Below are positions 433 through 21,132 of a stretch of DNA of 25,581 nt, piece by piece. Position 1 is the stretch's first letter. Every line of letters begins with the position of its first letter. Below the pieces are notes generated by a model. The model saw only the letters and a list, made by a program, of their open reading frames with translations. It was not told the DNA's origin and did not search any database. The stretch comes from a virus (Duplodnaviria; Caudoviricetes): IMG/VR virus record IMGVR_UViG_3300047288_000038, positions 1 to 25,581 of that record. One strand, written 5' to 3'. Made by a program: the position numbers and the translations under genes.

Positions 433-1149
433 ATGAATATCCAACCGATTGAAAAGCGTCGCGAAAGCGACGGAACTTCCTTACAAGTTCATTCCGTCTT
501 TAATACAATTCAAGGCGAAGGTCCATTCACTGGACGTGCGGCGGTCTTTATCCGCCTCGCTGGTTGTAATCTACAATGCCCAGCGTGTGACACGGATTAC
601 ACGACCGACCGTTGGGACTCTACACCATTCACACTAACGCAGATGGCGCAAGAAATGCGACCTGCTCCCTCGCTTGTGGTCATCACAGGCGGGGAACCAT
701 TCCGCCAGAATATCTACCCGCTTGTGAATTCGCTTATCGAAGCGGGTTACACGGTACAGATCGAAACGAATGGAACACTTCCGCCACCTGACGGCCTTGT
801 GGAACTTTGCGCGACGAATACATCGATTCCGAATAAGTGCTTCATTGTGTGCAGCCCTAAAGCAGGTCGAGTGAATACTATTACCGCGACGCTCGCTTGT
901 GCTTACAAATACGTCATGGCGCATGACAGCGTGGCAGCTGATGGGCTTCCTTTGCTTGCACTTGACCACAGTGCGTCACCGCATGTTGCCCGCCCTCCGG
1001 AATGCTTTAGCGGTCCGATCTATCTGCAACCTTGCGACGACAAAGATGTTGTCGTTAATCAAGAGAACTTGAAAGCGTGCGTCAGATCTGTTATGTCACA
1101 CAATTACGTTCTTCAGTTGCAAGTTCATAAAATTATTGACATGGAGTGA
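433..1149 (+). CDS. queE: 7-carboxy-7-deazaguanine synthase (radical SAM)
   Basis: F.TIQGEGPFTG, IRLAGCNLQCPACDT (CxxxCxxC), ITGGEP, IETNG and LQLQVHK motifs. ATG at 433 is preferred over the track start at 358. Confidence 0.95.
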   Translation: MNIQPIEKRRESDGTSLQVHSVFNTIQGEGPFTGRAAVFIRLAGCNLQCPACDTDYTTDRWDSTPFTLTQMAQEMRPAPSLVVITGGEPFRQNIYPLVNSLIEAGYTVQIETNGTLPPPDGLVELCATNTSIPNKCFIVCSPKAGRVNTITATLACAYKYVMAHDSVAADGLPLLALDHSASPHVARPPECFSGPIYLQPCDDKDVVVNQENLKACVRSVMSHNYVLQLQVHKIIDME

Positions 1150-1151
1150 TT

Positions 1152-2528
1152 ATGTGTTCGATTGTCGGCGCACTGGTGCAGCGCATAGATACGCACCAAA
1201 AGGTTCAAGCTGTTAATGACATCCTAGAACATATCTGGCAAGCCAGTCACGAGCGAGGTCGCGATGGACGTGGGTTTGTCATTAACTCCAGTGCGGAGAG
1301 CGATCTGCAAGCATACAAAGACGTGACGCGAAGCAACGGGCGAGCGATGCAGGCGCCTGCTTTGCATAGAGTGTGTCGCTCTGCGACCATTGTCGGAAAC
1401 CTTCGAGCTGAACCGACTACTGAATTCGTTCGTGAAAAGCGTTTGTCTGATCAGCAGCCCTACACGTCCGGAAATTGGTCTATTGCCCATAACGGCACTA
1501 TTGCCAACGACCGCGAACTTCGTACGCAAGATCTTCCCACAGGTATTGACAGCGCAGCAATCGCGGAGCAGTTGGCGTCTGCTAATGGTACGCTGGGCGA
1601 CTTTGTAGAAGTTATCCATAAGCTCAAGGGTAGCTATGCAATCTTGGCAACCCATACAGGGCACACGGACAAACTGTTCGTCGCTGCAAACTATCGCCCA
1701 ATCTGGTACATCGACACGCCTTATGGTGTCTTCTTTGCAAGCTCGCGTGATTACCTTCCGCAGGAATATCCGTCGCGCATGTTAAAGCCCTACACAGCGG
1801 CACTATTCGATATGAATGGTCTGCGTAAAGAAGTGACCTTGTATCGAGATAATGTACAGGGCGAACGTGCGCTGGTCGTGTGCAGCGGTGGCCTGGACAG
1901 CGTGGTCAGTGCGGCTTACGCACAGCGGGAACTCGGCTTGGATATCCACCTGATTCACTTTCTGTACGGTAGCCGCGCAGAAGGTCCTGAGGTGAAAGCA
2001 ATACAAGCGGTCGCGGAGTACCTTGGTGCGGAATTGTCACTGTTTAACCTGCCTGTCTATTCGAAAGGTGATTCACCATTGCTGGATCCCGATAGTAAAG
2101 TGGCGGGAGGAGAAGCTGGTGCAGAGTTCGCTCACGAATGGGTTCCTGCCCGGAACCTGCTGCTCCTGTCCGTTGCAACTGCATTCGCAGAGGCGCGAGG
2201 CATTGACACCATCGTTCTTGGAAACAACCTTGAAGAAGCTGGTGCATACCCTGACAACGAACCGGAGTTCATTGCCCGCTTCAATGATTTGCTTCCCTTC
2301 GCTGTTGGTGATGGAAAGCGAATGCGGGTTATTATGCCCGTAGGCAACCTTATGAAGCATGAGATTGTCGAACTTGGGAACCGCATTGGCGCCCCTATGC
2401 ACTTGACTTGGAGCTGCTATCGCGCCGGTGAATTGCATTGTGGAACCTGCGGCCCGTGCTTCATGAGACGTAAAGCGTTTGAAATTAACAACATTCCCGA
2501 AGTCATTTCTTATAAGGACGAACAATGA
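1152..2528 (+). CDS. queC: Glutamine amidotransferase (class II)-QueC fusion (Gat-QueC)
   Basis: Starts M-C-S-I (Ntn catalytic Cys) at ATG 1152 after GGAG. GATase motifs ERGRDG and HNGTIAN are followed by QueC motifs SGGLDS, VPARN, YPD, TWSCY and CGTCGPC. Confidence 0.93.
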   Translation: MCSIVGALVQRIDTHQKVQAVNDILEHIWQASHERGRDGRGFVINSSAESDLQAYKDVTRSNGRAMQAPALHRVCRSATIVGNLRAEPTTEFVREKRLSDQQPYTSGNWSIAHNGTIANDRELRTQDLPTGIDSAAIAEQLASANGTLGDFVEVIHKLKGSYAILATHTGHTDKLFVAANYRPIWYIDTPYGVFFASSRDYLPQEYPSRMLKPYTAALFDMNGLRKEVTLYRDNVQGERALVVCSGGLDSVVSAAYAQRELGLDIHLIHFLYGSRAEGPEVKAIQAVAEYLGAELSLFNLPVYSKGDSPLLDPDSKVAGGEAGAEFAHEWVPARNLLLLSVATAFAEARGIDTIVLGNNLEEAGAYPDNEPEFIARFNDLLPFAVGDGKRMRVIMPVGNLMKHEIVELGNRIGAPMHLTWSCYRAGELHCGTCGPCFMRRKAFEINNIPEVISYKDEQ

Positions 2529-2968
2529 AACGAATTACAGCAGAACGATATCACGATATCAGCACGGGCCACCGCGTCGTAGGCCATGAAAACAAGTGCC
2601 GTCACCTTCACGGTCACAACTACCGAATTCACTTTGTTTGTGAAGCTGACGAACTGGATACAGTGGGGCGCGTCATTGACTTCGGTGTGATCAAAGAAAA
2701 GCTGTGCATGTGGGTTGAGAACTATTGGGATCACAAGTTCCTGGCATGGGAGCGTGATCCTGTAATGACGCTCGCATGTGACCACATGGAGCACGACGAA
2801 TTCTTTAATGCGTCCGTCGTATTTGTACCGTTTAATCCGACTGCTGAAAACATGGCTCAACACCTTGTGGAAGTAATTGGCCCGCAACAACTCGCTGACA
2901 CTGGTGTGACGCTGGTGTCTGTCCGTATCGAAGAGACTGCTAAGTGCAGCGCATCATTTCACGCTTAA
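2525..2968 (+). CDS. queD: 6-carboxy-5,6,7,8-tetrahydropterin synthase
   Basis: GHR...KCRHLHGHNY, VIDFG, DHKFL, PTAEN and EET motifs. ATGA overlap with gat-queC. Confidence 0.95.
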   Translation: MKRITAERYHDISTGHRVVGHENKCRHLHGHNYRIHFVCEADELDTVGRVIDFGVIKEKLCMWVENYWDHKFLAWERDPVMTLACDHMEHDEFFNASVVFVPFNPTAENMAQHLVEVIGPQQLADTGVTLVSVRIEETAKCSASFHA

Positions 2969-2978
2969 GGAGCAAAAC

Positions 2979-3890
2979 ATGCAAACAAAATTGACTCACG
3001 ACCGAATTGGCGCACTGGTGGCACAAACCTCTGAAGCGATTCGCCAATACGCACATGGCGGCACAGTGCCGATCGCGGCCCTTACGGCCTACGCTGTGCC
3101 ACGCGGGGGCATTCCCGTAGCGTATGCGCTGCAAGGCGTGCTCGGTTTCCAGCTTACCGACGATCCTGCCGACGCCGATTTCTTTATTGATGATCTTATT
3201 GACAGCGGTTCGACCTGCGAACGCTACTGCGACGAGCATCCGGGAAAACCTTTCTTTGCTCTAATTGACAAGCGCATTGACAGCGAGTTCAAAGATTTGT
3301 GGATTGTGTTTCCTTGGGAAGTAACGGACAGTGGCAAGGACGAATCCGCAACGGATGCGATCGTTCGTCTGTTGCAATTTGTGGGTGAAGATGCAGATCG
3401 CGAAGGTCTGCAAGAAACTCCCGCTCGTGTGGTCAAAGCGTGGCGCCATTGGTGCAGTGGGTACGGTAAGGACGCCGGTTCGTTGCTCAAAGTGTTCGAA
3501 GATGGTGCAGAGCGTTATGATCAGATGGTTCTGGTAAAAGACATTCCAATCTATTCCCATTGCGAACACCACTTGGCAGCAATCATTGGCACTGCATCCA
3601 TCGCTTACATCCCTGACGGTAAGATTGTAGGCTTGTCAAAGCTGTCACGCCTTGCTGATATGTTTGCGCGACGTCTGCAAGTGCAGGAACGACTCACGGA
3701 TCAGATTGCTGACGCACTGGTAGAACACCTCCAGCCTTTGGGCGTCGGCGTGCTAATTAAAGCGCGTCATCTCTGCATGGAATCGCGAGGTATCTGCCAG
3801 CAGGGGCATCATACAGTGACCACAGCTCTTCGAGGCGCCATCAAAGACGAAGCTCAAACTAGAGCTGAGTTTTTACGTCTTGCGGACTGA
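2979..3890 (+). CDS. folE: GTP cyclohydrolase I with N-terminal type I phosphoribosyltransferase-like domain
   Basis: C-terminal FolE motifs REGLQETPARV, SHCEHH, VGLSKLSR, RRLQVQERLT and HLCMESRG. The N-terminal ~114 aa carry VPRGG, FFIDDLIDSGST (PRPP loop) and WIVFPWE. AAGGAG RBS. Confidence 0.92.
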   Translation: MQTKLTHDRIGALVAQTSEAIRQYAHGGTVPIAALTAYAVPRGGIPVAYALQGVLGFQLTDDPADADFFIDDLIDSGSTCERYCDEHPGKPFFALIDKRIDSEFKDLWIVFPWEVTDSGKDESATDAIVRLLQFVGEDADREGLQETPARVVKAWRHWCSGYGKDAGSLLKVFEDGAERYDQMVLVKDIPIYSHCEHHLAAIIGTASIAYIPDGKIVGLSKLSRLADMFARRLQVQERLTDQIADALVEHLQPLGVGVLIKARHLCMESRGICQQGHHTVTTALRGAIKDEAQTRAEFLRLAD

Positions 3891-3908
3891 ATTAACGCCC
3901 GTTAAAAT
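3880..3908 (+). promoter_or_regulatory. Putative sigma70 promoter for dpdA-clamp-pol, overlapped by a palindrome
   Basis: TTGCGG (3880-3885), 17 nt, TAAAAT (3903-3908). Inverted repeat TTAACG-CC-CGTTAA at 3892-3905. Confidence 0.5.
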
Positions 3909-3917
3909 GTAGCAAGC

Positions 3918-3942
3918 GCAGGGCCTACGCGGCCCTGCTTTT
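3918..3942 (+). terminator. Intrinsic terminator-like hairpin between folE and dpdA
   Basis: GCAGGGCC-TACGC-GGCCCTGC followed by TTTT. Confidence 0.6.
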
Positions 3943-3957
3943 GTGACTGGAGGTTCT

Positions 3958-4881
3958 ATGAACATTTTTATGGCGGCGGTATATACGAACTCCTATATGC
4001 AGGGTCAGAACCGTTATCTTAAATTGAACGATCGTGAAAAAGATATCGTTCATAATATCCCGCATATCCTGGAGTCATACCACTACATCGGATCACAGCG
4101 TTATCTTGACCAGATGCGAGCCGACAATGCACAGGTCTTTCTTGACTCCGGTGCGTTCTCTGCTTACACGCTCGGAGTTGAAATTGACTTGCCAACATAT
4201 TGTGACTATATCAAGCGCAACATGGATCTTTGGCGTGTAGAAGACGGGGTCGTGATGGCGTCCGTGCTTGACGGTATTGGTGATCCGCTTAAGACATACC
4301 AGAACCAGCTCCACATGGAGCAGCTTGGCGCAAAGCCACTTCCCTGTTTTCATGCAGGCGAAGACGAACGATATCTGGAGTATTACGTCCAAAATTACGA
4401 ATATATCACGCTTGGCGGCATGGTGGGCAGCTCTACGAAGCAGCTTTGCATATGGCTTGACCGCATGTGGGAGCGTTACCTTACCGATGGCAGCGGACGC
4501 CCGCGCCTGAAGGTGCATGGATTCGGTATTACCGCCATTCCAATCATGGAGCGTTATCCATGGTATAGCGTGGATTCGTCCTCCTGGATTCAGTCTGCTG
4601 CATTCGGTAGCATCATCACCCCAGACTGGGGGCCGTTATCCGTATCAGAAAAGTCACCGTCCAGGCACGACGCTGGACAGCACGCAACGACGCTCACAGC
4701 TATCGAGCAGGACTACGTCTTGCAGATGCTGGAGAAGCAGGGTTTCACATATGAGCGTCTGAGTAGTGTGTATGAGTCCCGAGCAGCCTATAATCTGTGG
4801 GCGTTCGGTGTTATCAACGAAATGATGAACGCTCAGAACAACTATGAGCAATTCACTCACCAAGTCCAGGAGCTCTTCTAA
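3958..4881 (+). CDS. dpdA: DpdA-like DNA 7-deazaguanine transglycosylase (TGT fold)
   Basis: FLDSGAFS, PCFH, LGGMV, VHGFG and SVDSSSW motifs, located next to the preQ0 synthesis genes. ATG 3958 follows GGAGG. Confidence 0.8.
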   Translation: MNIFMAAVYTNSYMQGQNRYLKLNDREKDIVHNIPHILESYHYIGSQRYLDQMRADNAQVFLDSGAFSAYTLGVEIDLPTYCDYIKRNMDLWRVEDGVVMASVLDGIGDPLKTYQNQLHMEQLGAKPLPCFHAGEDERYLEYYVQNYEYITLGGMVGSSTKQLCIWLDRMWERYLTDGSGRPRLKVHGFGITAIPIMERYPWYSVDSSSWIQSAAFGSIITPDWGPLSVSEKSPSRHDAGQHATTLTAIEQDYVLQMLEKQGFTYERLSSVYESRAAYNLWAFGVINEMMNAQNNYEQFTHQVQELF

Positions 4882-5840
4882 TGCTTGCAGAATTAAAGTT
4901 TGTGCAGGGTGCAGTCGCTAAAAAAGATTTCATCCCATCGCTGTCCCACTTTGTAATCGAGAACGGAACAGTCCGTGGATATAACGGTATGCTGGCACTT
5001 TGCACGCCCATTCCGTTTGACATTGAATGCAAACCCAAGGCTGAACCGCTTGTCAAAGCGATCAGCAACTGCACAGAGACCGTTCAACTTGCACTAACGG
5101 CAGCAGGGCGCCTATCGATTAAGAGCGGTAAGTTCAAGGCTTTTGTGGATTGCCATCCGGACGAAAGCACGCCACACGTTCAGCCTGAAGGCGAGCATGT
5201 GGTCATAGATGGCGCTGCAATGCTGCAGGCCTTAAAGGTCGTCTATCCGTTTATTGGTGACGATGCTTCCCGTCCATGGTCGAATGGTGTGTTGCTGTTG
5301 GGGCAAAGTGCATTCGCGACCAATAACATCACGCTCGTTGAATACTGGACTGGGTCTAGCGTTCCAAAACCGTTAAACATACCAAGAGCAGCGATTAAGG
5401 AATTACTTCGCATTGACGAAGCTCCTGAAGCTGTGCAGATGACCGAGACGTCTATCACTTTCCATTTCACAAAGGGGCGCTGGCTTCGAACGCAACTGTT
5501 CGCAACACAGTGGCCTGATCTGACAAAGGTGTTGGGGCGGGATAGTGACCCGCAACCATTGGACGATCGATTGTTCGAAGCACTTAAGACATTGAAACCA
5601 TTCACTGATAAAGCTGGTCGCATCATTTTTAGAGGCGCTGGTAAAATAGCAACCCATGACGATGAAACCGAAGGGGCTGGCTATGAAATTGACGGGTTTG
5701 ACCACACTGGCGTCTATCAGATTGATATGCTGAATCTTCTTAACGGTAACGCAAAGTCTATCGACTGGTCTGCTTACCCGTCGCCTTGTATGTTCTTTGG
5801 TGACCGTTTGCGTGGCGCCATTATCGGGATGAAGCAGTAA
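4881..5840 (+). CDS. DNA polymerase sliding clamp (beta-subunit-like) protein
   Basis: 319 aa. Beta-clamp-like segments include AVAKKDFIPSLSHF, IGDDASRPWSNGV, AFATN and QWPDL. TAATG overlaps with both neighbours, and it lies directly before the polymerase. Confidence 0.7.
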   Translation: MLAELKFVQGAVAKKDFIPSLSHFVIENGTVRGYNGMLALCTPIPFDIECKPKAEPLVKAISNCTETVQLALTAAGRLSIKSGKFKAFVDCHPDESTPHVQPEGEHVVIDGAAMLQALKVVYPFIGDDASRPWSNGVLLLGQSAFATNNITLVEYWTGSSVPKPLNIPRAAIKELLRIDEAPEAVQMTETSITFHFTKGRWLRTQLFATQWPDLTKVLGRDSDPQPLDDRLFEALKTLKPFTDKAGRIIFRGAGKIATHDDETEGAGYEIDGFDHTGVYQIDMLNLLNGNAKSIDWSAYPSPCMFFGDRLRGAIIGMKQ

Positions 5841-7873
5841 TGTCACGAGCGGATATCTGCGGGTTTTTCTGGGACGATACACCACCGCCAAAGCCCCCAA
5901 AGGCCGAGAAGCCCAAGCGCACGCCGCCGGAGCGCACTTGGGAGCGTCCAGACTACCTTCCCGGCCTAAACGATGCTTTAGCGTTCCGCGTTCCGCAGTT
6001 TGAAGACTGGGAGCTTGCGATCGCTGCTGCAAAGCGCGAACGGTTCGTGTTCGACATCGAGTGCTATTGCAACTATTTCTTGATCGCTTTCACTTCGCTT
6101 GCAAGCGGAAAGGTTATCTATTTCGAGCGCACAGCGAACCATGATTTCAACCGCGACAAGTTGCAATGGATTGTCAATACGTTCTGCCTTGTGAGCTTTA
6201 ACGGTATCGAATACGATATACCAATTCTATCCATGGCTTTAGCTGGTAAGTCTAACGCACAGCTAAAAGCAGCAACGAATGAAATTATTGCAAACGGAAC
6301 GCGCCCGTCCGATGTGCTTCGCACTTACAAAGTAAAGGCGCTAAAGCCCAACCACATTGACCTGATTGAAGTTGCACCGCTTCGCGCCAGTCTTAAGATC
6401 TATGGCGGACGCTTGCACGCTCCAAGAATGCAGGATTTACCGTTCCACCCTGAGACAACTTTGTCCCCTGAGCAGATGGCGATCGTTCGCTGGTATTGCG
6501 TCAATGACTTAACGAATACCGCTATTCTTCACGAATCGCTTAAAGAGCAGGTTGAGCTTCGCGAGTCCATGGGTAAAGAATACAAGATGGATCTTCGTAG
6601 TAAGTCCGACGCGCAGATTGCTGAAGCTGTTATTGCGGAGGAGATTGAACGCTTGAACGGAGTGCGTTCGCAGCGGCCAGTCATTGAACCTGGAACCCGT
6701 TACAAATACAAGATTCCGCACTTTATCAAGTACCAATCCCCTCTCATGAATTGGGCGCTGGATGTTGTTCGGAACGCCAACTTTATTGTTAGCGAAGACG
6801 GTAACGTGGGGATGCCCGAAGAGCTCAAGGCGCTACGCTTGCAGCTTGCGAACGGGGTCTATCGCATGGGCATTGGCGGTCTGCACAGCTCGGAGCAGTG
6901 TGCCGCGCATTACGCTGACGCCAATACACTGCTCATTGACCGTGACGTGACGTCTTATTACCCGTATATCATTCTGAATCAGGGTCTTTACCCGCAACAC
7001 TTGGGCCCCAACTTCTTGAAGGTCTATCGCACGCTTGTCGATAGGCGTATTGCAGCAAAGCACGCGGGAAACAAAGTCATCGCAGACTCGCTTAAGATTA
7101 CGATTAACGGGTCATTCGGCAAGCTCGGAAGTAGATATTCCGTTCTGTACGCTCCCGACCTACTAATCCAGACAACGGTGACGGGTCAGTTATCTTTGCT
7201 GATGCTAATTGAGCGCCTGGAGCTGGTAGGCATACCTGTGGTCAGCGCAAACACGGATGGCATCGTTATCAAGTGCCCCACAGCACGCCAAGCGGAATGT
7301 GATGCGATTGTGAAGCAGTGGGAGACCGATACGGGTTTTGAAACGGAAGACACGCAGTACCTCGCAGTCTTTAGTCGAGACGTGAATAATTACATTGCAG
7401 TAAAGAAAAAGTTTGACAAAGAAACAAAGCAGTGGCTCTACAAGCCGGACGGGTGCAAGACTAAGGGTGCCTATGCAAACCCAGAGAAGCCTTCCGACCG
7501 ATTGCACAAGAATCCAACGAACCAAATCTGCGTCGATGCGGTCATTGCATTGCTGACGCATGGAACGCCTGTAATGACCACAGTACGCTCTTGCACCGAT
7601 ATCCGGAAGTTCGTGTCCGTTCGTACTGTAAAAGGTGGCGCAGTTAAAGACGGTCAGTTCCTGGGCAAGTCTATCCGCTGGTACTATGCAGCAGGCGAAG
7701 ACGGTGAAATTGTGTATGCTGACAGCGGGAACAAGGTTCCGCGTTCTGAAGGTGCAAAGCCGCTGATGGACTTGCCTGCAGAATTTCCGCAAGACGTGAA
7801 TTATGAATGGTACGAGCGCGAAGCCGAGCGGATGCTAGTTGATATCGGTTATATGGAAAAACCGTCGAACTAA
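5840..7873 (+). CDS. Family B DNA polymerase with 3'-5' exonuclease
   Basis: Exonuclease motifs FDIECY, SFNGIEYD and YCVND. Polymerase motifs DRDVTSYYP, KITINGSFGKLG and SANTDGI. Confidence 0.9.
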   Translation: MSRADICGFFWDDTPPPKPPKAEKPKRTPPERTWERPDYLPGLNDALAFRVPQFEDWELAIAAAKRERFVFDIECYCNYFLIAFTSLASGKVIYFERTANHDFNRDKLQWIVNTFCLVSFNGIEYDIPILSMALAGKSNAQLKAATNEIIANGTRPSDVLRTYKVKALKPNHIDLIEVAPLRASLKIYGGRLHAPRMQDLPFHPETTLSPEQMAIVRWYCVNDLTNTAILHESLKEQVELRESMGKEYKMDLRSKSDAQIAEAVIAEEIERLNGVRSQRPVIEPGTRYKYKIPHFIKYQSPLMNWALDVVRNANFIVSEDGNVGMPEELKALRLQLANGVYRMGIGGLHSSEQCAAHYADANTLLIDRDVTSYYPYIILNQGLYPQHLGPNFLKVYRTLVDRRIAAKHAGNKVIADSLKITINGSFGKLGSRYSVLYAPDLLIQTTVTGQLSLLMLIERLELVGIPVVSANTDGIVIKCPTARQAECDAIVKQWETDTGFETEDTQYLAVFSRDVNNYIAVKKKFDKETKQWLYKPDGCKTKGAYANPEKPSDRLHKNPTNQICVDAVIALLTHGTPVMTTVRSCTDIRKFVSVRTVKGGAVKDGQFLGKSIRWYYAAGEDGEIVYADSGNKVPRSEGAKPLMDLPAEFPQDVNYEWYEREAERMLVDIGYMEKPSN

Positions 7874-7881
7874 AGATTTCT

Positions 7882-7909
7882 TTGCATAGTTCTAGATTTG
7901 TCCTATACT
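7882..7909 (+). promoter_or_regulatory. Putative sigma70 promoter
   Basis: TTGCAT (7882-7887), 16 nt, TATACT (7904-7909), in an AT-rich gap after the polymerase gene. Confidence 0.55.
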
Positions 7910-7939
7910 GCAAACACATCCAACACAAAGGAGATTGAC

Positions 7940-8203
7940 ATGGGTGACATGGCAGACACGATGAACGCATTGAAAGCGTATCACAAAGAGAAACGGGAAG
8001 CGAAGGCTGAGGTGAATATCGGTAAGCTGGAACGCATGGGAATTCCAGCAAGCGAACAGTCCAAGAATGTGTTCCGCATTGACACCGAGCATGGAGCGGT
8101 GATGTATTACCCGCCTAGCAACAAGTGGCAACACCGCGGCAAAGTGCATCGCGGTGACGTGCAAGCCTTTAAGGGCTGGCTCCAGAATAACAGTTACCTC
8201 TAA
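7940..8203 (+). CDS. Small basic hypothetical protein (87 aa)
   Basis: AAGGAG RBS precedes ATG 7940 (MGDMADTMNALK...). The track TTG start at 7898 lies inside the promoter. Confidence 0.75.
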   Translation: MGDMADTMNALKAYHKEKREAKAEVNIGKLERMGIPASEQSKNVFRIDTEHGAVMYYPPSNKWQHRGKVHRGDVQAFKGWLQNNSYL

Positions 8204-8211
8204 GGACTAAC

Positions 8212-8424
8212 ATGAAACGCACTAGCACACTGAAAGATCACTTCTACGTTATCTGTGCAATCCTGGCAGGTCTTATTCTGTTTGGAATTGTAGGCGGAAT
8301 GGATGCTGAAGACGAACAGGCGCAGCTCGAGCATTATTGCGAGATGGTGAAGCTCAACAAAAAAGACCCATCTGCGGGCTGGCCGGATTACGACGGCATC
8401 TATAAGACAGCTTGCAACAAGTAA
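8212..8424 (+). CDS. Small membrane-anchored hypothetical protein
   Basis: AAGGA RBS. One hydrophobic segment (FYVICAILAGLILFGIVGG) is followed by a soluble part with two Cys. Confidence 0.75.
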   Translation: MKRTSTLKDHFYVICAILAGLILFGIVGGMDAEDEQAQLEHYCEMVKLNKKDPSAGWPDYDGIYKTACNK

Positions 8425-8460
8425 AAAGGGCGGTCACGCATGTCCAGGGACGTGACCGCC
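8422..8460 (-). terminator. Intrinsic terminator at the convergence of the two gene blocks
   Basis: 10-bp stem GGCGGTCACG (8429-8438)/CGTGACCGCC (8451-8460), followed on the - strand by CTTTTT. Confidence 0.65.
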
Positions 8461-8488
8461 AAACCGCGGAGGAGACGGCCGCGGGGCG

Positions 8489-9025
8489 TTATTTCTTGTT
8501 GAGGCTAAACTTGTCGAGTGATCGGAAGCCGAGGTAAGCAGCAGCGGGAGCGATAAGAACCATAGCCAAGTCCCATGACGCACCATGTCCGAAGACGTTT
8601 GTTGCTTTAAGGCCTTCGAAGACGATCACATACGCCATCGTGGCGTACCAGCTTTGACGTGCCATCATTGGGCGCGTGTGACGGACGTATTCATCGACCG
8701 CGGTATCACCGCCGCGAATGGTTTGTTGCTGCTCAGTGTGTGCAGCTTGTTCGTCCTTAAGGCGCATTTCTTCCATGACGCGAATGTGCTCGCGAATGCT
8801 CGCTTCTTCTTGCACCGAAAGTTCTTTAAGGCGAATCATGGTAGCTGGATCTTGCTGCAAGGCGGCTAGGGCCTTCGCGGGGTCTGTGGTGCCAGTAGCA
8901 CTACCCACAAGCGCAACGCCGGCAGCAACGGCCCCAGGCACGTTCCCAGTCAGCAAACTGCCAACTAATGCAGCTCCCGTCCCCGCATTGTTCTTAAGCC
9001 AACTGCCTACGTCTGTCCAATTCAT
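8489..9025 (-). CDS. Putative holin (3TM-type)
   Basis: ATG 9025 overlaps the endolysin stop (ATGA) after AAGGAG. It has a hydrophobic Gly/Ala N-terminus, a coiled segment, an RP motif, two C-terminal TM segments and a YLGFRSLDK tail. Confidence 0.65.
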   Translation of the reverse strand: MNWTDVGSWLKNNAGTGAALVGSLLTGNVPGAVAAGVALVGSATGTTDPAKALAALQQDPATMIRLKELSVQEEASIREHIRVMEEMRLKDEQAAHTEQQQTIRGGDTAVDEYVRHTRPMMARQSWYATMAYVIVFEGLKATNVFGHGASWDLAMVLIAPAAAYLGFRSLDKFSLNKK

Positions 9026-9405
9026 GCTGGATACTCCTTGTGAGGTAATTGCCAATGAGGGCCGTCCTTGAACTTTTTCCAATCACCGCCCCATTCAACG
9101 GGAATGCTTAGTTCAGCAGAAGCTGCCTTCATAGCGTCCGCGATCTTAAAGTACAAAGGCCAATCCCAGCGAACCTTCCCGCCAACCAGTGCGCCCAGAT
9201 CCACAGCGTGACCAGTAAGGTGTCGGCTGTTCATTGTGGTCGTTGCACCAGCCTTAAGGAGCTCGGCCTGACGTTCCTTCGTGCGAATACCTTCTAACAC
9301 TGTGAAATCAATTTCACTAAGTTGGATCGCACGCTCAACGACCTTAACAAGATCCGAATGAACTTGTTGCAATCGTAGAATGGAAGTCGGGCCGAGTTTG
9401 AACAT
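9022..9405 (-). CDS. Endolysin, M15 family (L-Ala-D-Glu peptidase type)
   Basis: EGIRT..RQ, SRHLTGHAVD, WGGDW and DGPHWQL zinc-peptidase motifs. Confidence 0.9.
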   Translation of the reverse strand: MFKLGPTSILRLQQVHSDLVKVVERAIQLSEIDFTVLEGIRTKERQAELLKAGATTTMNSRHLTGHAVDLGALVGGKVRWDWPLYFKIADAMKAASAELSIPVEWGGDWKKFKDGPHWQLPHKEYPA

Positions 9406-9656
9406 TATTTATCTGCTTTACGGTCTATTTTGTCTTCGATTTTGTCTAGCTTCGCGAAGAGTGCTTTAATGTTATCTTGCAACTCTTCTTTCCGAACATA
9501 GTCACCAGCGACAAGAACTTCGAGTTCACCAACCTTCTGAACTAAGGTCTGGTCAGCTTTTTGCAAGTCTTTCACAGCTTGCCAGACAGCGTTAAGAAGA
9601 AATCCAATTAGGGCGCCGAAGCCCCCTAGCAACCAGTTAATGATGGTTTGATCCAT
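9405..9656 (-). CDS. Small single-TM coiled-coil protein of the lysis module (holin/antiholin-like)
   Basis: N-terminal TM (IINWLLGGFGALIGFLLNAVW) and a charged coiled-coil C-terminus. TAATG overlap with the endolysin. Confidence 0.6.
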   Translation of the reverse strand: MDQTIINWLLGGFGALIGFLLNAVWQAVKDLQKADQTLVQKVGELEVLVAGDYVRKEELQDNIKALFAKLDKIEDKIDRKADK

Positions 9657-9670
9657 TTCTTACGCCTTTC

Positions 9671-10150
9671 TTACAGTTTTGCAGCTTCGACAAACAAATT
9701 GTCGATCTGTTCTTCCGTAAGTGGCAAAGCGGAAGCGATGGATTTAACGAGTGGTGAATAACGCTGAACGTCTTGTGCATACTCCCATTCAATACGAGCA
9801 GCTTCGCCCTCTGTGCCAGGCATTGCAGCGACAGCGTCTGTAACCACAGTGAGCAACCCTGCATTCAATAGCGCAAGGCGTGCCTGGCGCATACTAACGG
9901 TCTGCGGGCCTTCCGGAGGGGGTGCAACGTATTCGGGAAGCTCCGGAGCCACTGCGTCGGGAAAGTTCTTAGCGGTGAAACCGAATCTCTTCACAACACT
10001 TTCGTCTTTGACAGCTTTCCAGACCTTAGCTTCGTCATCTTTTTCCAGACGGTAAAGCGTGCCTTCCAGGGTCTTCATAAAAGCATCATGTTCCGGAGTA
10101 CCCTCTAGGGCATCCAAATCTTCGCGGGTGTTAATTACAACTGACACCAT
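9671..10150 (-). CDS. Two-domain protein; C-terminal part resembles tail-fibre-associated/assembly proteins
   Basis: An N-terminal INTREDLDAL...RFGFT segment, a Pro-rich linker, then SMRQARLAL...IEWEYA...SPLV...LTEEQIDNLF. Overlaps the RT 3' end by 20 nt. Confidence 0.65.
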   Translation of the reverse strand: MVSVVINTREDLDALEGTPEHDAFMKTLEGTLYRLEKDDEAKVWKAVKDESVVKRFGFTAKNFPDAVAPELPEYVAPPPEGPQTVSMRQARLALLNAGLLTVVTDAVAAMPGTEGEAARIEWEYAQDVQRYSPLVKSIASALPLTEEQIDNLFVEAAKL

Positions 10151-11117
10151 ATCGGTTCTCCATCCAATTAAAAAGGTTATTCGAATCTGCCCACTGTACG
10201 TGACCAGACCATGCAGCTAGAAACTTTTGCAGCGACTCTGAATCATCTCGTGTAATATACCTTTGAATCTTTCTTTTTGCACGGATGACGGAATCTTTCC
10301 TCAGTAGTTTGTGAGTGGGCCAAATACGGTATCCAAGGAAGTTAATACCTTGACTGATTGGGCTTACTTGCCACTTACTGATTCGCATACCCAGTTCGTT
10401 AAACGAGAATTCCTGTATGCGATTAAATATACGGTGAAGCTGCTCAGGATCGTCTCCTAGAATAACAACGTCGTCCATATACCGCGCCCAATGACGCTGG
10501 CCCAACTCAAAGTGAATAAGCCTATCCACCGCGCCACCATACACGTTAGCGAATAGTTGGCTGGTAAGACTACCGATAGGCAAACCCTTTCCGGTCTGCG
10601 GAATTATCTCACGCAGAATGTTCAGCGTACCCTGACAGCTAATCTTGCGATCGATCATTCGGTGGAGAACGCTGTGGTCAATGCTTGGAAAAAACTTACT
10701 GAAATCGGTCTTAAGAAAATACTTGCAGCCTGTGCTTCTTAAGCTGGCTTGAATATGTTTGACGCCTGCGTGTGTTCCTTTACCTGTTCGACAAGCAAAC
10801 GTATAAGGCATCAAAGTCTTTTCGAATATGGGTGCGACCACATTGCATGTCGCGTGCTGAACTAATCTGTCTTTGAAATCAAGTGCAGAAATAAGTCGTT
10901 CCTTAGGTTCGAAGATTGTGAATTGGCGGTATTCGCCAATCTTGTATCTTCCCTCCTGGAGTTCTTTCTGTACTTCCAACAAATTAGCTTCGGCGTATTC
11001 TTTGAATTCCAGAAAGCCGAATGTCCCACGCTTACCCTTTGACGTCTTGGTGTAGGCGTCCCGTAAGTTGTCTATGACCACAATCTGGTCGATTAAGTTT
11101 CTATGTTTCTTTGCCAT
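10131..11117 (-). CDS. brt: DGR reverse transcriptase (328 aa)
   Basis: Start MAKKHRNLIDQI at ATG 11117. Motifs FKDRLVQHA, KTDFSKFFPSI, GLPIGSLTSQLFAN (DGR-typical SQ), RYMDD and INFLGY. The track's 535-aa ORF includes 207 upstream codons spanning the spacer, TR and avd. Confidence 0.96.
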   Translation of the reverse strand: MAKKHRNLIDQIVVIDNLRDAYTKTSKGKRGTFGFLEFKEYAEANLLEVQKELQEGRYKIGEYRQFTIFEPKERLISALDFKDRLVQHATCNVVAPIFEKTLMPYTFACRTGKGTHAGVKHIQASLRSTGCKYFLKTDFSKFFPSIDHSVLHRMIDRKISCQGTLNILREIIPQTGKGLPIGSLTSQLFANVYGGAVDRLIHFELGQRHWARYMDDVVILGDDPEQLHRIFNRIQEFSFNELGMRISKWQVSPISQGINFLGYRIWPTHKLLRKDSVIRAKRKIQRYITRDDSESLQKFLAAWSGHVQWADSNNLFNWMENRYGVSCN

Positions 11118-11277
11118 AAAGAAGTTGGCAGCGCCTTTCGATATTTCACTACTCTGCGCTCTACCAAACCGTGTAGAGTGTTTCCCGAAGGAGGACAGAA
11201 CCGGCTGACCACACATTAAATGGTCTGCTCGCAAAGCCTTAGCGTTTGCGAAGCGATAACATTGTGCAGACACAGCA
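11118..11277 (-). ncRNA. IMH* and structured TR-RT spacer of the DGR template RNA
   Basis: 160 nt between TR and the RT start. Hairpins: TCGCAAA/TTTGCGA (11229-11251), TCC-TTCG-GGA on the - strand (11183-11192) and CTCTAC/GTAGAG. Confidence 0.6.
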
Positions 11278-11386
11278 GCCGCGGGCGCCGATGTTGTTGT
11301 TCGAATTCCAAGGATAATTGTTCCAATTCGAGCATCGCGAACCAGAGTTCGACCCGTTGTTCCAGTTGCCCCCAAAGAGCGCAGCA
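11278..11386 (-). repeat. DGR template repeat (TR)
   Basis: 109-nt near-copy of 11800-11908 (offset 522) beginning right after the avd stop. In the VR frame it reads AALFGGNWNNGSNSGSRCSNWNNYPWNSNNNIGARG (11 AAY codons). Confidence 0.97.
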
Positions 11387-11764
11387 TTATTTCCCGGCCT
11401 GCCCTTTGCGTCGCCTTGTCTTTATCCAACTGACCAACGGCTGTCCCACTTCGGCGACCTGCAATTGAGCGGTCTGAAGCTGGTGTGGCGTCATGCAGTG
11501 TATCGAGACAAGGAAGCGCATCCAAAACCGTAGATTCGACAGAGCCGCTTCTACGGAATAGATTTCTGAAACCCGTTTCGACTTGCCAGCCTGATGCAAT
11601 ACCTCGGGAATGCCGAGTAAGCAGGTCAGGAACATATCTCGAGCGATTCCGTGTTTCCGCGGAATGGATTGTGCAATCGGATAAAGGTAAGCGATGACTC
11701 GCTCGTACTTTTCCAGGATTAGCATCTGCTCGAAACATTTAACGGCGTCCGAAACGGGTTCCAT
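11387..11764 (-). CDS. avd: DGR accessory variability determinant (four-helix bundle)
   Basis: 125 aa, basic, lying between target and TR. The sequence MEP...QMLILEKYERVIAYLYPIAQSIPRKHG...LRFWMRFL...EVG...SWI...KGQAGK matches my recollection of BPP-1 Avd. Confidence 0.93.
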   Translation of the reverse strand: MEPVSDAVKCFEQMLILEKYERVIAYLYPIAQSIPRKHGIARDMFLTCLLGIPEVLHQAGKSKRVSEIYSVEAALSNLRFWMRFLVSIHCMTPHQLQTAQLQVAEVGQPLVSWIKTRRRKGQAGK

Positions 11765-11772
11765 TATTTAGA

Positions 11773-13095
11773 TTACTCAAATTTCAGGTGGTCACATACG
11801 CCGCGGGCGCCGACGTCGCTGCCCGAATACCAAGGATAACTGGCCCAAAGCGAGCACCGCGAACCAGAGGACGACCCGTCGCCCCAGAGGCCCCCAAAGA
11901 CCGCAGCAACTAGAGCGATATCGCTGTAGAGATAAAGCGAACCGCGCCCACCGGATACAGCACGCCAGTTCCAAGGTGTAGAAGCCCCGTCTTGGCGGTA
12001 GCTAAACTCATCTCCCCAAGTCCAAAGAACGCCAGTCGCTTGGATAACGCCCCAGCGGGACGTGTAGGCAGCGTTCAGAATTGTGCTGACCTGATCTGTA
12101 CCGACAGAAGACGCTTCAGTAGAGCCATATGCAAGAGCAGAGAATTCGCTATATGTCGGAAGACGTTTGCCATGCGATTTCAGCACTTCAGCAGCTTCCC
12201 ACCAGTTCATAGAAGCATAAGCGTTCGTTCCTGTACCGCCAAACTTCGTCGGAATCTTAGGAGGGCTAGAACCGTCAGCCATTGTGACGTTATATTTTGA
12301 CGTCCCGTTAGTCAAGTGATCAACGCCTGTGAAATAAATGTCAGCCCAGAACCCACCTGCTACCAGCGTCATTCCGCGTGGATCAATTGAAGCTGGACGG
12401 AACTTAAGATCCCAGAAGCTGTATTCGTTAATCTGCGGAGTAGTGTTGCCACCAGTTTGAGCGGCAGCGTTACCGCCCGGGGCGTAGTGGAATCCACCAA
12501 TTTTGCGCCAGTTACCAGCGCCTGGAGGTGATGTAAAGTTTGCACTCGCTTGGATCGTTGCGTCGTCTTTTACCCAGACCGCATAATCGGTTCCGTTTGT
12601 AAGTGCAGGCATCGTGATCGCGGTCACAGTAGTGTATTCCACCGTCTTACCAGCGACGTCAATCTTACACGCTTTAATGGAAGCGGTTCCGTTGCCTGTC
12701 TTTGTAAAAAGAACAGTTTCTGGATCCACTTTATAAAACAGACCGAACTTACCCATCAAGTCAGCGTACTGCTTAGTCGCAGCGCCAAGAGCGAGTGTAG
12801 GGTCTGCGCTTAGAATCAGCGGACCTGTCATTGTGTCGCCTGCGATATCCACTTTGCCGTCGCCTACAAAAGAACTCAGCAAAGCAAGCGTCAAGCTCTT
12901 GTCTTCCGTACCTTGGCGGGTAAGAAGCAAGTCGGTTCCGCTTGTGGTAGAAGCTGCGACAAGATCTGCCAGCGTTACCTTAGTGGCGCCCAGTTTGGAC
13001 GTGATGGTGGCTTCGTTACCAGCAAGCGAAAGGATTGCAGCTTGCTGATCGAGCAGCTGGCGAACCAGTACTTCTTCTGTTGCAGTTAATGACAT
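11773..13095 (-). CDS. mtd: DGR target: tail fibre/receptor-binding protein with Mtd-like C-type-lectin-fold C-terminus
   Basis: VR encodes its last residues (...GARGVCDHLKFE). Mtd-like segments include GGFHYAPG, INEYSFWDLKFRP, FWADIY and HGKRLP. The N-terminal region has the fibre motif GDTMTG...AATKQYAD. Confidence 0.92.
   Translation of the reverse strand: MSLTATEEVLVRQLLDQQAAILSLAGNEATITSKLGATKVTLADLVAASTTSGTDLLLTRQGTEDKSLTLALLSSFVGDGKVDIAGDTMTGPLILSADPTLALGAATKQYADLMGKFGLFYKVDPETVLFTKTGNGTASIKACKIDVAGKTVEYTTVTAITMPALTNGTDYAVWVKDDATIQASANFTSPPGAGNWRKIGGFHYAPGGNAAAQTGGNTTPQINEYSFWDLKFRPASIDPRGMTLVAGGFWADIYFTGVDHLTNGTSKYNVTMADGSSPPKIPTKFGGTGTNAYASMNWWEAAEVLKSHGKRLPTYSEFSALAYGSTEASSVGTDQVSTILNAAYTSRWGVIQATGVLWTWGDEFSYRQDGASTPWNWRAVSGGRGSLYLYSDIALVAAVFGGLWGDGSSSGSRCSLWASYPWYSGSDVGARGVCDHLKFE
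11776..11812 (-). promoter_or_regulatory. G/C element and IMH (initiation of mutagenic homing) at the VR 3' end
   Basis: A 14-nt G/C-only run CGGCGCCCGCGGCG (11812-11799) is followed by TATGTGACCACCTGAAATTTGAG. This diverges from the TR counterpart TGCTGTGTCTGCACAATG. Confidence 0.8.
11800..11908 (-). repeat. DGR variable repeat (VR)
   Basis: Ungapped alignment to TR with 20 mismatches, 19 at TR adenines. Encodes AAVFGGLWGDGSSSGSRCSLWASYPWYSGSDVGARG. Confidence 0.97.
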
Positions 13096-13097: not shown

Positions 13098-13541
13098 TTA
13101 CAGTTCTCCAAATTGACGTGAGGTTGCCATAATGACCACATTGGCTCCGCCGCTTACGGGCTGATTACCGCCAACGGTTGCAGTGCCAAGGGTAAGTGTT
13201 GCACTGCTGATCACTTTCAGCGTATGCACGACACCAGCCGCTCCCTTGTACCCAATAGCGACAAGGTACTTATTAGGATCAGCACGATCAAACGCTTCCA
13301 GGCGGATGACGCTTTCTGGTGTAGTAAAAAGACCGACGCCATTTGCATCGGATACTTTGTCGCGGTTGAACAGACGGAACACCTTTTGGAAAAGCCAGTT
13401 CAACCACTGGGCTGGTAAAGGTTGCCCGCGAGCCCCTGCTGTCTCAGGTATAAAACCCGACGTCATTACAGCGTCTGGGGGTTGCCCTACGTTCTGCTGA
13501 CCGTCAGGATAACCGACGTACTGTTCCGCAAACTGAATCAT
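13098..13541 (-). CDS. Putative tail-fibre proximal/adaptor protein
   Basis: The GFIP...QPLPAQWLNWLF segment resembles myophage fibre N-termini. It lies between the baseplate genes and the DGR target. Confidence 0.55.
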   Translation of the reverse strand: MIQFAEQYVGYPDGQQNVGQPPDAVMTSGFIPETAGARGQPLPAQWLNWLFQKVFRLFNRDKVSDANGVGLFTTPESVIRLEAFDRADPNKYLVAIGYKGAAGVVHTLKVISSATLTLGTATVGGNQPVSGGANVVIMATSRQFGEL

Positions 13542-14266
13542 TGAAAGACCCCTGTCAAATTGTCATGGCCGATTGTGGTCAAAGTGTTTGGATTATACAC
13601 AGCGAGCGTCGGACCACCGACGTCTAAATAACCAATCCCGACATCAAGCTCTGCTGGAACAACTCCGCCGAATGTGGATGCACCAGTTGCAATCGCAGAA
13701 GACGTCACTTGGATATCACTACCGTCAGCGGTCAGATAATCCTGTGCATCATTAACGAATAACTCTCCCGGAGCTGGTTCGCGTGAAAAACGGAATGGCT
13801 TATCGGCAAAAGAAACCGCGACAGGAATGTCACTAATTGCAGCGGGTGACAAGTCCTGCATCGCAAGTTGAATCTTTTCATCTACAAAGAAACCGTTCGT
13901 GAAAAGAAGTGTAGTGGCGGGGTACGCTTCCAGGTACTGACAGTCGGTTGGATCGGTCAGGAACTTGAGCCCGCGTATCAGATTCGTTGGCGTCCCCTTA
14001 GAGATATTGACAAACACACGGAACTTAATGGCGGTCCGATATGCGTCATCTGTACGCCCTTGACGAGCTTCGCCGACAATGTATCCGCAGCCGTCAAGCT
14101 GCTTTCCAATAGCAGTATCAATCCAGCGATCGGAAATTAAGCTGTCTGCATTGTCTTCCAGCGTAGTGAGCGGCCCAACGATTGCAGCCATTAGGGCTTT
14201 AATCTTGGGAGAGTTCTCGAATTGACCAGTTAGTCGAGAAACTGCAAGGGTTGCATAATCGAACAT
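13538..14266 (-). CDS. Baseplate protein (DUF2612-like)
   Basis: QFENSPK...IDTAIGKQLDGCGYIVG...DDAYR..IK pattern, following baseplate J. Confidence 0.75.
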   Translation of the reverse strand: MFDYATLAVSRLTGQFENSPKIKALMAAIVGPLTTLEDNADSLISDRWIDTAIGKQLDGCGYIVGEARQGRTDDAYRTAIKFRVFVNISKGTPTNLIRGLKFLTDPTDCQYLEAYPATTLLFTNGFFVDEKIQLAMQDLSPAAISDIPVAVSFADKPFRFSREPAPGELFVNDAQDYLTADGSDIQVTSSAIATGASTFGGVVPAELDVGIGYLDVGGPTLAVYNPNTLTTIGHDNLTGVFQ

Positions 14267-14268
14267 CT

Positions 14269-15696
14269 TTACACCCCGACCACAGTGATTCGCGCTTCGT
14301 CAAACAAAGCAAGCTCCGCACGCGCCACCGATACGTTCAATGTGCTATAAGAAGGCGTGTCCGAGATAAGATTAGTCATTGCAGCTTCCACCGTAATGGA
14401 ACCGATTCCGCTTGTTGCGGAATAGATCGGGCCGTAGAAACGCTGAGTGATAATGTCTTCACCGATGCCAATAGTATCGGCAAACGCTATGACAGCAGTC
14501 TTAATCGCTTGCACGACTTCGGTCGTAAGAACTTCTTCGGGGTTTAGCGTGTTCACACTAACGCGAATCCATGCAAACTTGTCAGCAGGACGCGAAAACT
14601 TACAAATCTGAATATCGCCGTTCTCGTCCAGAACTTGAATACTTGTATTGCCGTAAGTTTCAATTCCAGCGGGTTTAACTTCGAACAACTTATCAGCGAC
14701 CGCTTGATTTGAACCGCCGTCAATTACTGCTTCAAATGAATGCGGAGGAAGATTAAAAGAGTCGATTACGTTTGTTCGGTTTTCATAGATGGAACAATAA
14801 ACAACAGAATCCACTTCTGCAAGCATACGAGAACGAATTGCCTGTGCTGTTGCAGCTCCAGTCACGCGAACGCTGTTGGAGTGTCGGTTGCGAAGTTCTT
14901 CGTCTGTTTCAACAAAACGTCCAGTGGCGCCAGCAACAAGGTTATTCACTTCGTCCCACCCGACAACGGAACTATCCATGCGGGTCAAAGCGTTTGCAGG
15001 CAGTGCATAAGCGCCATTATCCAGGGCGGTAAAAACGACAGGCGTTCCAAGTGTGGTAATGGCGAGCTTGCTATCCACACTGAGCGTGAAGTCGCTATAT
15101 AAATCCGCAGAGCGAAGACGCAACTTACCGCCTTCCGCAGTTGCAAGGAAGTTATTCGCGTCGAATAGTGGCGCCAACCCTGCTGCAATTTCTTCAGCAG
15201 TAGCACTAGCGTCGGACGTATATACAACACTCACACCGTTCGCGATCACTTGATACGTCGCAAGGTTTGTGACCGTATGGGCTTCGATAATTACATCACC
15301 GGAACTTGAGCGACTGATAACGCTGTCTGCCGTGGTGACATATTGTCGATTATCCAGCGAGCGTGCAAGCGCACCAGCGGGGATCAACGTGCTTTCAGTA
15401 CCGTAGCACATAGCGACCACAGTTGTCGGCGTAGCGCCCAGGCGCTCTAGCCCTACAAACGACACCGCGCCGTCTAGCGAAGTACCTTCCGCAGTTGCGG
15501 GATACATGCTGTCATAAGTGTTCTGCAGAGCTTCGTAGGTATCGTCCAGCGCAGCGGAAAAGATACCAATGATTTGACCGACCACAGCATCCGCGTTCGT
15601 ATTGACAGGGCCAAGCGCATCAGTGAAGCGTTTGTCGTAGTCGGTTTTGATTTCGTTTAAGCGGGGACGTTCGAACCCCTGTACGGTTAAGCTCAT
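14269..15696 (-). CDS. Baseplate J-like wedge protein
   Basis: PATAEGTSLD, GRFVETDEELR, LPPHS and KPAGI motifs. Confidence 0.88.
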   Translation of the reverse strand: MSLTVQGFERPRLNEIKTDYDKRFTDALGPVNTNADAVVGQIIGIFSAALDDTYEALQNTYDSMYPATAEGTSLDGAVSFVGLERLGATPTTVVAMCYGTESTLIPAGALARSLDNRQYVTTADSVISRSSSGDVIIEAHTVTNLATYQVIANGVSVVYTSDASATAEEIAAGLAPLFDANNFLATAEGGKLRLRSADLYSDFTLSVDSKLAITTLGTPVVFTALDNGAYALPANALTRMDSSVVGWDEVNNLVAGATGRFVETDEELRNRHSNSVRVTGAATAQAIRSRMLAEVDSVVYCSIYENRTNVIDSFNLPPHSFEAVIDGGSNQAVADKLFEVKPAGIETYGNTSIQVLDENGDIQICKFSRPADKFAWIRVSVNTLNPEEVLTTEVVQAIKTAVIAFADTIGIGEDIITQRFYGPIYSATSGIGSITVEAAMTNLISDTPSYSTLNVSVARAELALFDEARITVVGV

Positions 15697-16040: not shown

Positions 16041-16047
16041 GTCGAGG

Positions 16048-16077
16048 ATGATAACATTTCCAATCTAAGTCCATCAA
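16048..16077 (-). promoter_or_regulatory. Putative promoter giving a leaderless transcript
   Basis: TTGATG, 18 nt, TATCAT with extended-10 TG. Only 7 nt separate it from ATG 16040, and no SD is present. Confidence 0.4.
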
Positions 16078-16087
16078 GTTATAGGCG

Positions 16088-17700: not shown

Positions 17701-17703
17701 GGC

Positions 17704-18743: not shown

Positions 18744-18752
18744 GTTTCGTCC

Positions 18753-20432: not shown

Positions 20433-20436
20433 TTCA

Positions 20437-21068: not shown

Positions 21069-21106
21069 GTCAGTTCCTCGAGTGTGGTCAATGCGGTGAG
21101 TATAGC

Positions 21107-21132
21107 AAAACGGGGCCTTGTGGGCCCCGTTT
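21107..21132 (-). terminator. Intrinsic terminator after the tail tube gene
   Basis: AAACGGGGCC/GGCCCCGTTT stem with a 5-nt loop, ending in TTTT on the - strand. Confidence 0.7.

Follow-up and report, generated by a model that had tools for sequence, protein, structure and literature searches.

Does a phage that diversifies its receptor-binding fibre and is also predicted to modify its DNA use both abilities as a pair, or do two independent systems share one genome? This question is raised by the viral record IMGVR_UViG_3300047288_000038, a linear sequence of 25,581 nucleotides (nt; 39% complete by CheckV) from a phage of freshwater and wastewater, which was analysed in its entirety and is called the window here. 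On its + strand (433-7873), queE, gat-queC, queD, a phosphoribosyltransferase-folE fusion and dpdA, a cluster for 7-deazaguanine modification of DNA, are followed by genes for a sliding clamp and a family-B DNA polymerase (PolB). The - strand encodes, in this order, neck, contractile sheath, tube, tape measure, baseplate and a fibre of 440 amino acids (aa), then avd, a template repeat (TR), a spacer, a reverse transcriptase (RT), a 159-aa protein and lysis proteins. Fibre to RT form a diversity-generating retroelement (DGR), which lies 2.3 kb from the deazaguanine/replication module. The reading we consider probable is that of a phage with a contractile tail, likely virulent, whose modification cluster of the type found in phage 9g is intact and into whose genome a DGR without the usual hairpin was likely swapped that diversifies the fibre, likely independently of the modification. 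Its starting points are direct observations: the gene content, the linkage, adenine-templated alleles of the variable repeat (VR) across studies, the absence of the hairpin and the boundaries of the swapped module.

The two systems and their linkage

The features on which the argument draws are the following; IMH stands for initiation of mutagenic homing, IMH* for its counterpart in TR, and E for expectation value.

433..1149, + strand: queE, radical-SAM 7-carboxy-7-deazaguanine synthase (phrog_2076, E 2e-56; CxxxCxxC at residue 45)
1152..2528, + strand: gat-queC fusion (PF06508, 1e-52, and GATase_6/7; N-terminal Cys, SGGLDS), which predicts archaeosine (G+) rather than preQ0
2525..2968, + strand: queD (PF01242, 1e-24; phrog_2389)
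2979..3890, + strand: folE with an N-terminal phosphoribosyltransferase-like domain (FolE above NCBIfam cut-offs; phrog_8995, E 7e-5, residues 68-115)
3958..4881, + strand: dpdA, DNA deazaguanine transglycosylase (phrog_887, 2e-95)
4881..5840, + strand: sliding clamp (with PolB, matches to phrog_947/phrog_1252)
5840..7873, + strand: PolB (PolB motifs; with the clamp, matches to phrog_947/phrog_1252)
9671..10150, - strand: 159-aa gene that goes with the cassette (N-terminus resembles the BPP-1 gene after brt)
10131..11117, - strand: DGR RT (GLPIGSLTSQ and YMDD; PDB 8UB7, E 7.5e-156)
11118..11261, - strand: spacer RNA (Sp; 13 nt identical to BPP-1 Sp50-62)
11262..11386, - strand: TR with IMH* (aligned 109 nt at ~11278-11386)
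11387..11764, - strand: avd (NF033474, 90.1 bits, cut-off 80; PF22296)
11765..11772, - strand: fibre-avd spacer of 8 nt, hairpin-less, where related DGRs carry a hairpin
11776..11908, - strand: VR (11800-11908), G/C run and IMH-like tail (TR/VR alignment)
11773..13095, - strand: tail fibre, with an N-terminus of the phage lineage (about 70-95 aa) and an Mtd body with C-type-lectin tip (match to Mtd 1YU0)

Profile matches and the TR/VR alignment put the deazaguanine cluster, clamp, PolB and fibre DGR at the coordinates and distances that the original prediction had given, and sheath and baseplate genes follow the fibre, as expected for the contractile tail it had proposed. It had further called the DGR complete. 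RT, TR, avd and an Mtd-like fibre with VR are indeed all present, while the hairpin downstream of VR is missing.

The DGR is of the BPP-1 type and sits on an Mtd-like fibre. The 109 aligned nt of TR and VR contain 20 mismatches, 19 of which fall on the 25 adenines of TR (hypergeometric p 4e-15); the adenines lie mostly in AAC/AAT codons, which allows about 2e15 peptide variants. Fibre residues 119-439 match the Mtd structure 1YU0 (E 1e-112), with VR at the C-terminus of the C-type-lectin target. The gene order corresponds to the mtd-avd-TR-brt order of BPP-1, with identities of 66.5% for the RT, whose DGR-class motifs are intact, about 63% for Avd and about 59% for the Mtd body. A G/C run, distinct IMH and IMH* and a spacer RNA are shared as well; within the 13 identical nt of the latter, position 11206 aligns with Sp A56, reported as the priming site of complementary DNA (cDNA) in BPP-1 (PMC6182149). 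In contrast to BPP-1, the window lacks a GRNA-loop hairpin after VR, and its Mtd body is joined to the N-terminus of a myophage fibre. Its phage also seems to be virulent, encodes a PolB of its own and, by prediction, contains deoxyarchaeosine (dG+).

The deazaguanine half is an already known kind of system. The set of the 9g-type dG+ pathway (FolE, QueD, QueE, Gat-QueC, DpdA) is intact and conserved, with its catalytic motifs present, and DpdA is 78% identical to that of NP1/PaMx25, 76% to MiCath, 69% to CAjan and 67.5% to 9g. Judged by ratios of nonsynonymous to synonymous substitution (dN/dS) of 0.02-0.11 for all five genes against two relatives (0.02-0.04 for dpdA), the que/dpdA genes are under purifying selection. 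The phosphoribosyltransferase-like domain of FolE (window 2979-3330) is kept in close relatives. Gat-QueC in place of QueC is reported to yield dG+ in 9g, and 9g Gat-QueC with DpdA to yield it in E. coli (PMC6884629). Consequently, dG+ is predicted to replace part of the guanines in this phage, whose cluster we assign to the 9g/Nipunavirus type. Four-base palindromes were considered as a sign of modification and proved uninformative (CCGG 0.53 and GATC 1.03 in the window versus 0.75 and 0.88 in its relative G007).

Among the phages that share this cluster, 9g and Nipunavirus (NP1, PaMx25; Queuovirinae) have the same five proteins, including Gat-QueC in Nipunavirus (PMC8310023). They differ from the window phage, which has a contractile tail, a genome of about 48 kb in its relatives and a fibre DGR. 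Listed Queuovirinae are siphoviruses of 56-63 kb; the window shares their deazaguanine cluster with close DpdA, but it has a sheath gene and relatives of 47-48 kb and thus departs from them in tail and size. MiCath, a Pseudomonas putida phage, resembles the window in DpdA and more distantly in its sheath (38%), and is described as a virulent myovirus that lacks an integrase, carries a deazaguanine cluster and a Cas4 exonuclease, and has DNA resistant to restriction (PMC10710427). It differs in that it is not among the RT matches listed, and its paper names an endosialidase (PMC10710427).

Are both systems truly linked, and does the DGR work? Public sequencing runs with at least 23% of the sampled words numbered 20 in 13 studies; five were compared with the window, as contigs rather than reads, and the four besides X1, the possible source, (X3, X4, X6 and X8) come from four studies. 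All four hold the DGR cassette, and no gap is listed inside the RT gene in the X3, X4 and X8 contigs. A single X3 contig covers 3800-11157, i.e. dpdA to RT, with 212 differences over 7,358 nt, and a single X4 contig covers 7243-11365, from PolB to TR. A chimera across 7.9-10 kb, which would have undone the original prediction, is ruled out by these contigs from independent studies together with conserved synteny: the order PolB-lysis-fibre-baseplate recurs in 8 of 25 dpdA-bearing loci. RT, Sp, TR and avd are all intact in these strains, which are 1.5-3.5% apart.

VR, in turn, varies among them in the expected manner. The X3 allele shows 22 differences to the window, and 19 of the 20 listed are at TR adenines while the other reverts to the TR letter; in X8, 9 of 30 positions differ, all nine at TR adenines. 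Non-TR letters listed inside the repeat are confined to TR adenines (14/14), two X6 differences upstream of the repeat being excluded from this count. Within X6, the flanks assemble at depth 26-29 and VR breaks into five short contigs at depth 4-10, where depth sums at 11814 and 11816 distinguish three alleles. Judging from these adenine-templated alleles in four other studies, the DGR is active in nature. Neither system, then, looks inactive by sequence, a further way in which the original prediction might have failed.

The Mtd scaffold upstream of VR (11850-12670) differs at 56 of 559 positions in X4 and 71 of 832 in X8, parts of VR included, whereas RT-avd differs at only 26 of 1,748 in X8. 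This suggests selection or recombination beyond VR.

Origin of the pairing and lifestyle of the phage

Two relatives, G002 (47.8 kb) and G007 (47.2 kb), are circular records with terminal repeats. The window aligns with these and with G001 mostly at 73-81% DNA identity (blastn), except for about 9657-12894, where no match was obtained; homology resumes at about 12895. At the corresponding place G007 carries an ordinary 328-aa fibre and a chaperone. Likewise, in the 18 distinct relatives that reach the fibre, the match is limited to residues 1 to 69-95 and another tip follows (8 + 10 records). We conclude that fibre tip and DGR were likely swapped in as one 3.2-kb module with boundaries at about 9657-12894. 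The 159-aa gene within it is 45% identical over 59 aa to the gene after the RT in locus L027, and bbp4 is the BPP-1 gene in the same position. The nearest cassette copy fetched is about 67% identical in DNA, and the DNA pattern of the fibre 3' end gave no match in viral contigs and none in metagenome contigs.

A database screen for co-occurrence of DGR RT and dpdA/que genes, which the original prediction had called for, turned out against a general association. RT was absent from all 25 dpdA records and from all 45 other records of sheath relatives. DpdA, in turn, was not found in the 50 records searched of 80 RT-relative records (8 of the 50 at least 90% complete; positive control 3/3), nor in 26 further sheath relatives, mostly fragments. 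In the fetched DNA of 185 RT loci, que/dpdA genes occur in the window only, and among cultured phages no accession was common to the RT and DpdA matches listed, which were drawn from 156 RT and 235 DpdA records and compared by eye. The other tip in 18 relatives and the lack of RT/DpdA co-occurrence indicate that the pairing is rare and likely recent rather than a conserved system.

It is also the sole DGR-deazaguanine pairing found in the searches made. As the original prediction had suspected, no paper describing the combination was found in the literature searched, which covered 20 of 196 hits of one search. The EC151 paper mentions DGRs in a reference title only, a review of RTs ties que genes to G2L RTs in defence islands and not to DGRs, and a cold-seep paper has both gene types among its viruses, not placed on one genome in the passages considered. 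What is new is likely the combination of two known parts: a phage that is likely virulent and likely contains dG+ carries a DGR that lacks the hairpin and still diversifies.

Two sets of related loci deserve mention. L329-L333 (G098, G103) share the head-tail module of the window (sheath 73-81%); their early regions are of the RecET type, and neither DpdA nor PolB was matched there. L019 and L076 are relatives of the DGR, of hairpin type, beside a distant PolB (38-42%) and window-like small genes, with no DpdA in these fragments; they are possibly other self-replicating phages with a DGR.

Is the phage virulent? None of the 35 annotated open reading frames (ORFs) of the window encodes an integrase or repressor, as the original prediction had noted, and the integrase family PF00589 has no match in it. 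For the rest of the genome, which that prediction had wanted checked for lysogeny genes, the record is partial and complete relatives have to stand in: in both circular ones, integrase, resolvase and CI are missing. A PHROG scan that covered 149 of the 154 ORFs in those parts of G007 that mostly lack window homologues revealed primase, helicase, ligase, thymidylate synthase, dCMP deaminase, MazG, Sak4, single-stranded DNA-binding protein (SSB), a Cas4-like exonuclease, RusA and head genes, and neither integrase nor repressor. PF00589 was found in 0 of 11 dpdA-lineage records versus 6 of 10 BPP-1-like DGR carriers, a resolvase in 0 of 5 relatives and an S24 repressor in 0 of 4, and 185,579 bacterial and archaeal genomes hold no close sheath relative. 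Since complete relatives of 47-48 kb lack integrase and CI repressor, the window phage is likely virulent.

It would thus be a well-supported DGR in a likely virulent phage, contrary to a survey whose text places all 92 phage DGRs in temperate phages (PMC6199706). However, a virulent DGR phage is uncommon, not unique: three DGR carriers at least 93% complete also lack PF00589, and for Bacuni phages with a DGR lysogeny reportedly could not be shown (PMC8143477). The latter and crAss-like phages resemble the window phage in this respect (PMC8143477), while they differ in their Bacteroidota hosts and distant RTs (crAss-like 32-37% among the matches listed).

The missing hairpin

In BPP-1, an 8-bp GC stem with a GAAA loop directly follows VR, and its disruption is reported to lower tropism switching more than 1000-fold with a small residue (PMC3240598). 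In the window, by contrast, 8 AT-rich bases separate the fibre stop from the avd start, with no GC-rich GRNA-loop hairpin. How unusual this is became apparent from 290 loci. Once 46 that lack the fibre end, 5 located at contig ends and 91 duplicates had been removed, 148 fibre ends remained, 96 of them from complete DGRs. Of these 96, 79 have a perfect stem (47 with GAAA, the commonest loop), seven a stem with one mismatch, nine a tandem G·A stem with GNNA loop and one, the window, none. X3, X4, X6 and X8 share the hairpin-less spacer plus one extra base, so that by parsimony their alleles postdate the loss. The hairpin is not universal: only 34% of 372 DGRs of all classes are reported to have such repeats (PMC5758913), and the stem-loop is described as 'not strictly required' in E. 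coli (PMC12875486).

Two substitutes were considered and not accepted, both without a sense-strand GRNA loop: a 5-bp stem with GTCA loop inside avd at 11690-11703, which is beyond the 4-34 bp range in PMC3240598, and a weak stem at 11747-11759. The nine G·A elements, of the type GCGAGC-GNNA-GCGAGC after the fibre stop (as in L052, L057, L145, L179, L197, L215, L219 and L251), are hairpins only if tandem G·A pairs are allowed. Inverted-repeat finders would miss them, which may have lowered published hairpin counts.

We propose the following course of events. DpdA would exchange G for G+ after replication, as we infer from 9g and iggy. RT and Avd would prime at the spacer adenine and copy TR with errors at adenines, and the cDNA would anneal via the IMH to single-stranded VR template at phage replication forks. 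Without hairpin this annealing route would likely be slower, and large lytic populations with selection on the receptor-binding tip would keep it productive. For BPP-1, residual hairpin-independent homing is reported (PMC3240598), and annealing on the lagging strand has been proposed (PMC12875486).

The original prediction had asked how retrohoming could act on an IMH with modified guanines. The template of a DGR is RNA, its cDNA is made from ordinary deoxynucleoside triphosphates, and a 7-deazaguanine keeps the Watson-Crick face; a modified IMH should therefore not block annealing. This question looks weak, and the missing hairpin is the sharper anomaly. Most likely, the DGR and modification modules act independently. 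As the route of DGR cDNA into VR is described as still open (PMC12875486), a natural element that lacks the hairpin would provide a test case. With its RT 66% identical to that of BPP-1, the window DGR can be compared with this model system in the E. coli reporter already available, in the presence or absence of the annealing and base-modifying enzymes of its phage.

Several points weigh against the reading we favour. The window is about half the size of its complete relatives, so that about 22 kb of the phage, on which virulence depends, are unseen. G007 has one weak excisionase-like helix-turn-helix gene (E 9e-6). One record classed as a provirus contains the head-tail module, and so does another that has RecET and a repressor-like gene. 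Since relatives are mostly fragments, counts of absence are to be read as lower bounds. For X3, TR does not appear among the listed pieces and was taken to equal that of the window; for X4 and X6, the mismatch counts agree with such an equality. Run X1 was left out of the activity evidence since it may be the source and showed four VR differences versus none on the same record. A homing rate is not readable from contigs, and that homing is slower is what we infer. Finally, dG+ in virion DNA and the DpdA motif are predictions.

Could the DGR instead home efficiently without its hairpin, through Sak4, SSB and PolB at forks, or did dG+ make a GA-loop hairpin useless? Taken together, these stronger claims are doubtful. 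Of all alternatives the former survives best, albeit as an unlikely one: a phage Sak4-type annealing protein, SSB, Cas4-like exonuclease and PolB would anneal cDNA efficiently and make the hairpin dispensable. Sak4 is present in 4 of 4 backbone relatives, not in a 42,493-nt BPP-1-like record and in 0 of 20 DGR-relative records, and several VR alleles coexist in X6. In addition, DGRec (BPP-1 RT with RecT) is reported to integrate cDNA without the natural target signal, needing no IMH (10.1101/2025.03.24.644984); it is engineered, whereas the window DGR keeps its IMH and the role of Sak4 is putative. However, Sak4 lies outside the window, is placed in this phage through its relatives and concerns a single lineage. 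Furthermore, 4 of 10 large DGR-relative records have RecT and yet keep the hairpin; thus an annealing protein alone does not lead to its loss. The ERF family was found in 0 of 10 records. If hairpin-free homing were efficient, nature would have produced a DGR coupled to recombineering, which would give direct access to the unsolved step of cDNA integration.

A decaying DGR, in which hairpin loss is the first step to deletion and the alleles would go back to rare residual events that became fixed over long periods, strikes us as rather improbable. Loss can accompany decay, since 11 of 14 orphan Mtd genes without RT, avd and TR also lack the hairpin, compared to 1 of 96 complete DGRs; such orphan Mtd-like fibres without downstream DGR machinery include L132, L138, L150, L161, L174 and others. 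Moreover, two short high-depth X4 contigs (window 10173-11766) connect the RT 3' end with the start of avd or with the spacer and keep the fibre end, as if RT-TR-avd were deleted; their sides are short, and they probably stem from other relatives. What speaks against decay is that the cassette is intact in diverged strains of four studies and that alleles coexist in X6.

That DGR and dG+ form a selected pair for host jumps, providing a new receptor and restriction immunity at once, was the central claim of the original prediction, and we now regard it as improbable. Linkage on one genome in an independent study and the intactness of both systems fit it, as does the reported resistance of 9g DNA to about 71% of more than 200 type II enzymes (PMC5567051). 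However, protection from the restriction systems of a new host is a benefit that dG+ brings in general; the dG+ cluster is common to the relatives, whereas the DGR swap is in the window phage only, and the pair does not recur elsewhere. The operons are convergent, with no shared regulation seen, and in BPP-1 the switch is one between surface phases of a single host. A promoter scan gave four hits versus 4.5 expected.

We grant slightly less to a direct link between modification and hairpin loss, in which dG+ at GA/GGC disables the GRNA-loop hairpin, so that it was lost after cassette entry, or DpdA base exchange opens the target. The sole hairpin-less DGR of 96 is also the sole one on a dpdA genome; related DpdA enzymes are reported to target GA or GA/GGC (PMC10484667), GAAA is the commonest loop, and loop sequence matters in BPP-1. 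Yet this is a single coincidence, modification follows replication, and nothing indicates that the loop needs the N7 of G. The GA-loop argument is further weakened by the motif of Gat-QueC-type phages such as 9g, given as not established (PMC10484667). That the contig is an assembly chimera or a piece of a temperate phage is very improbable: the record is partial, DGRs are reportedly enriched in temperate phages (PMC6199706) and 6 of 10 BPP-1-like carriers have an integrase, but independent contigs bridge the junction, synteny is conserved and the two circular relatives lack integrase, resolvase and CI.

Neighbouring genes

Two further regions flank the cassette:

8489..9656, - strand: lysis region with a probable holin-like gene (label inferred from position), M15 endolysin (PF13539) and an 83-aa gene
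13098..25476, - strand: baseplate, tape measure, tube, contractile sheath and neck genes (profile matches)

The right end of the lysis region coincides with the limit of homology to relatives (blastn against G007 ends at 9656). Its endolysin (9022-9405) shares 92% identity with that of G007 and 41% with that of G001, and has no match in G002, so that lysis genes appear to be exchanged inside the lineage. In the holin-like gene (8669-8762), the run X1 contig has 28 listed, mostly codon-spaced differences, i.e. a recombinant patch. Beyond the lysis genes, the RT gene (10131-11117) stands out by composition, with 44% G+C versus about 51% elsewhere.

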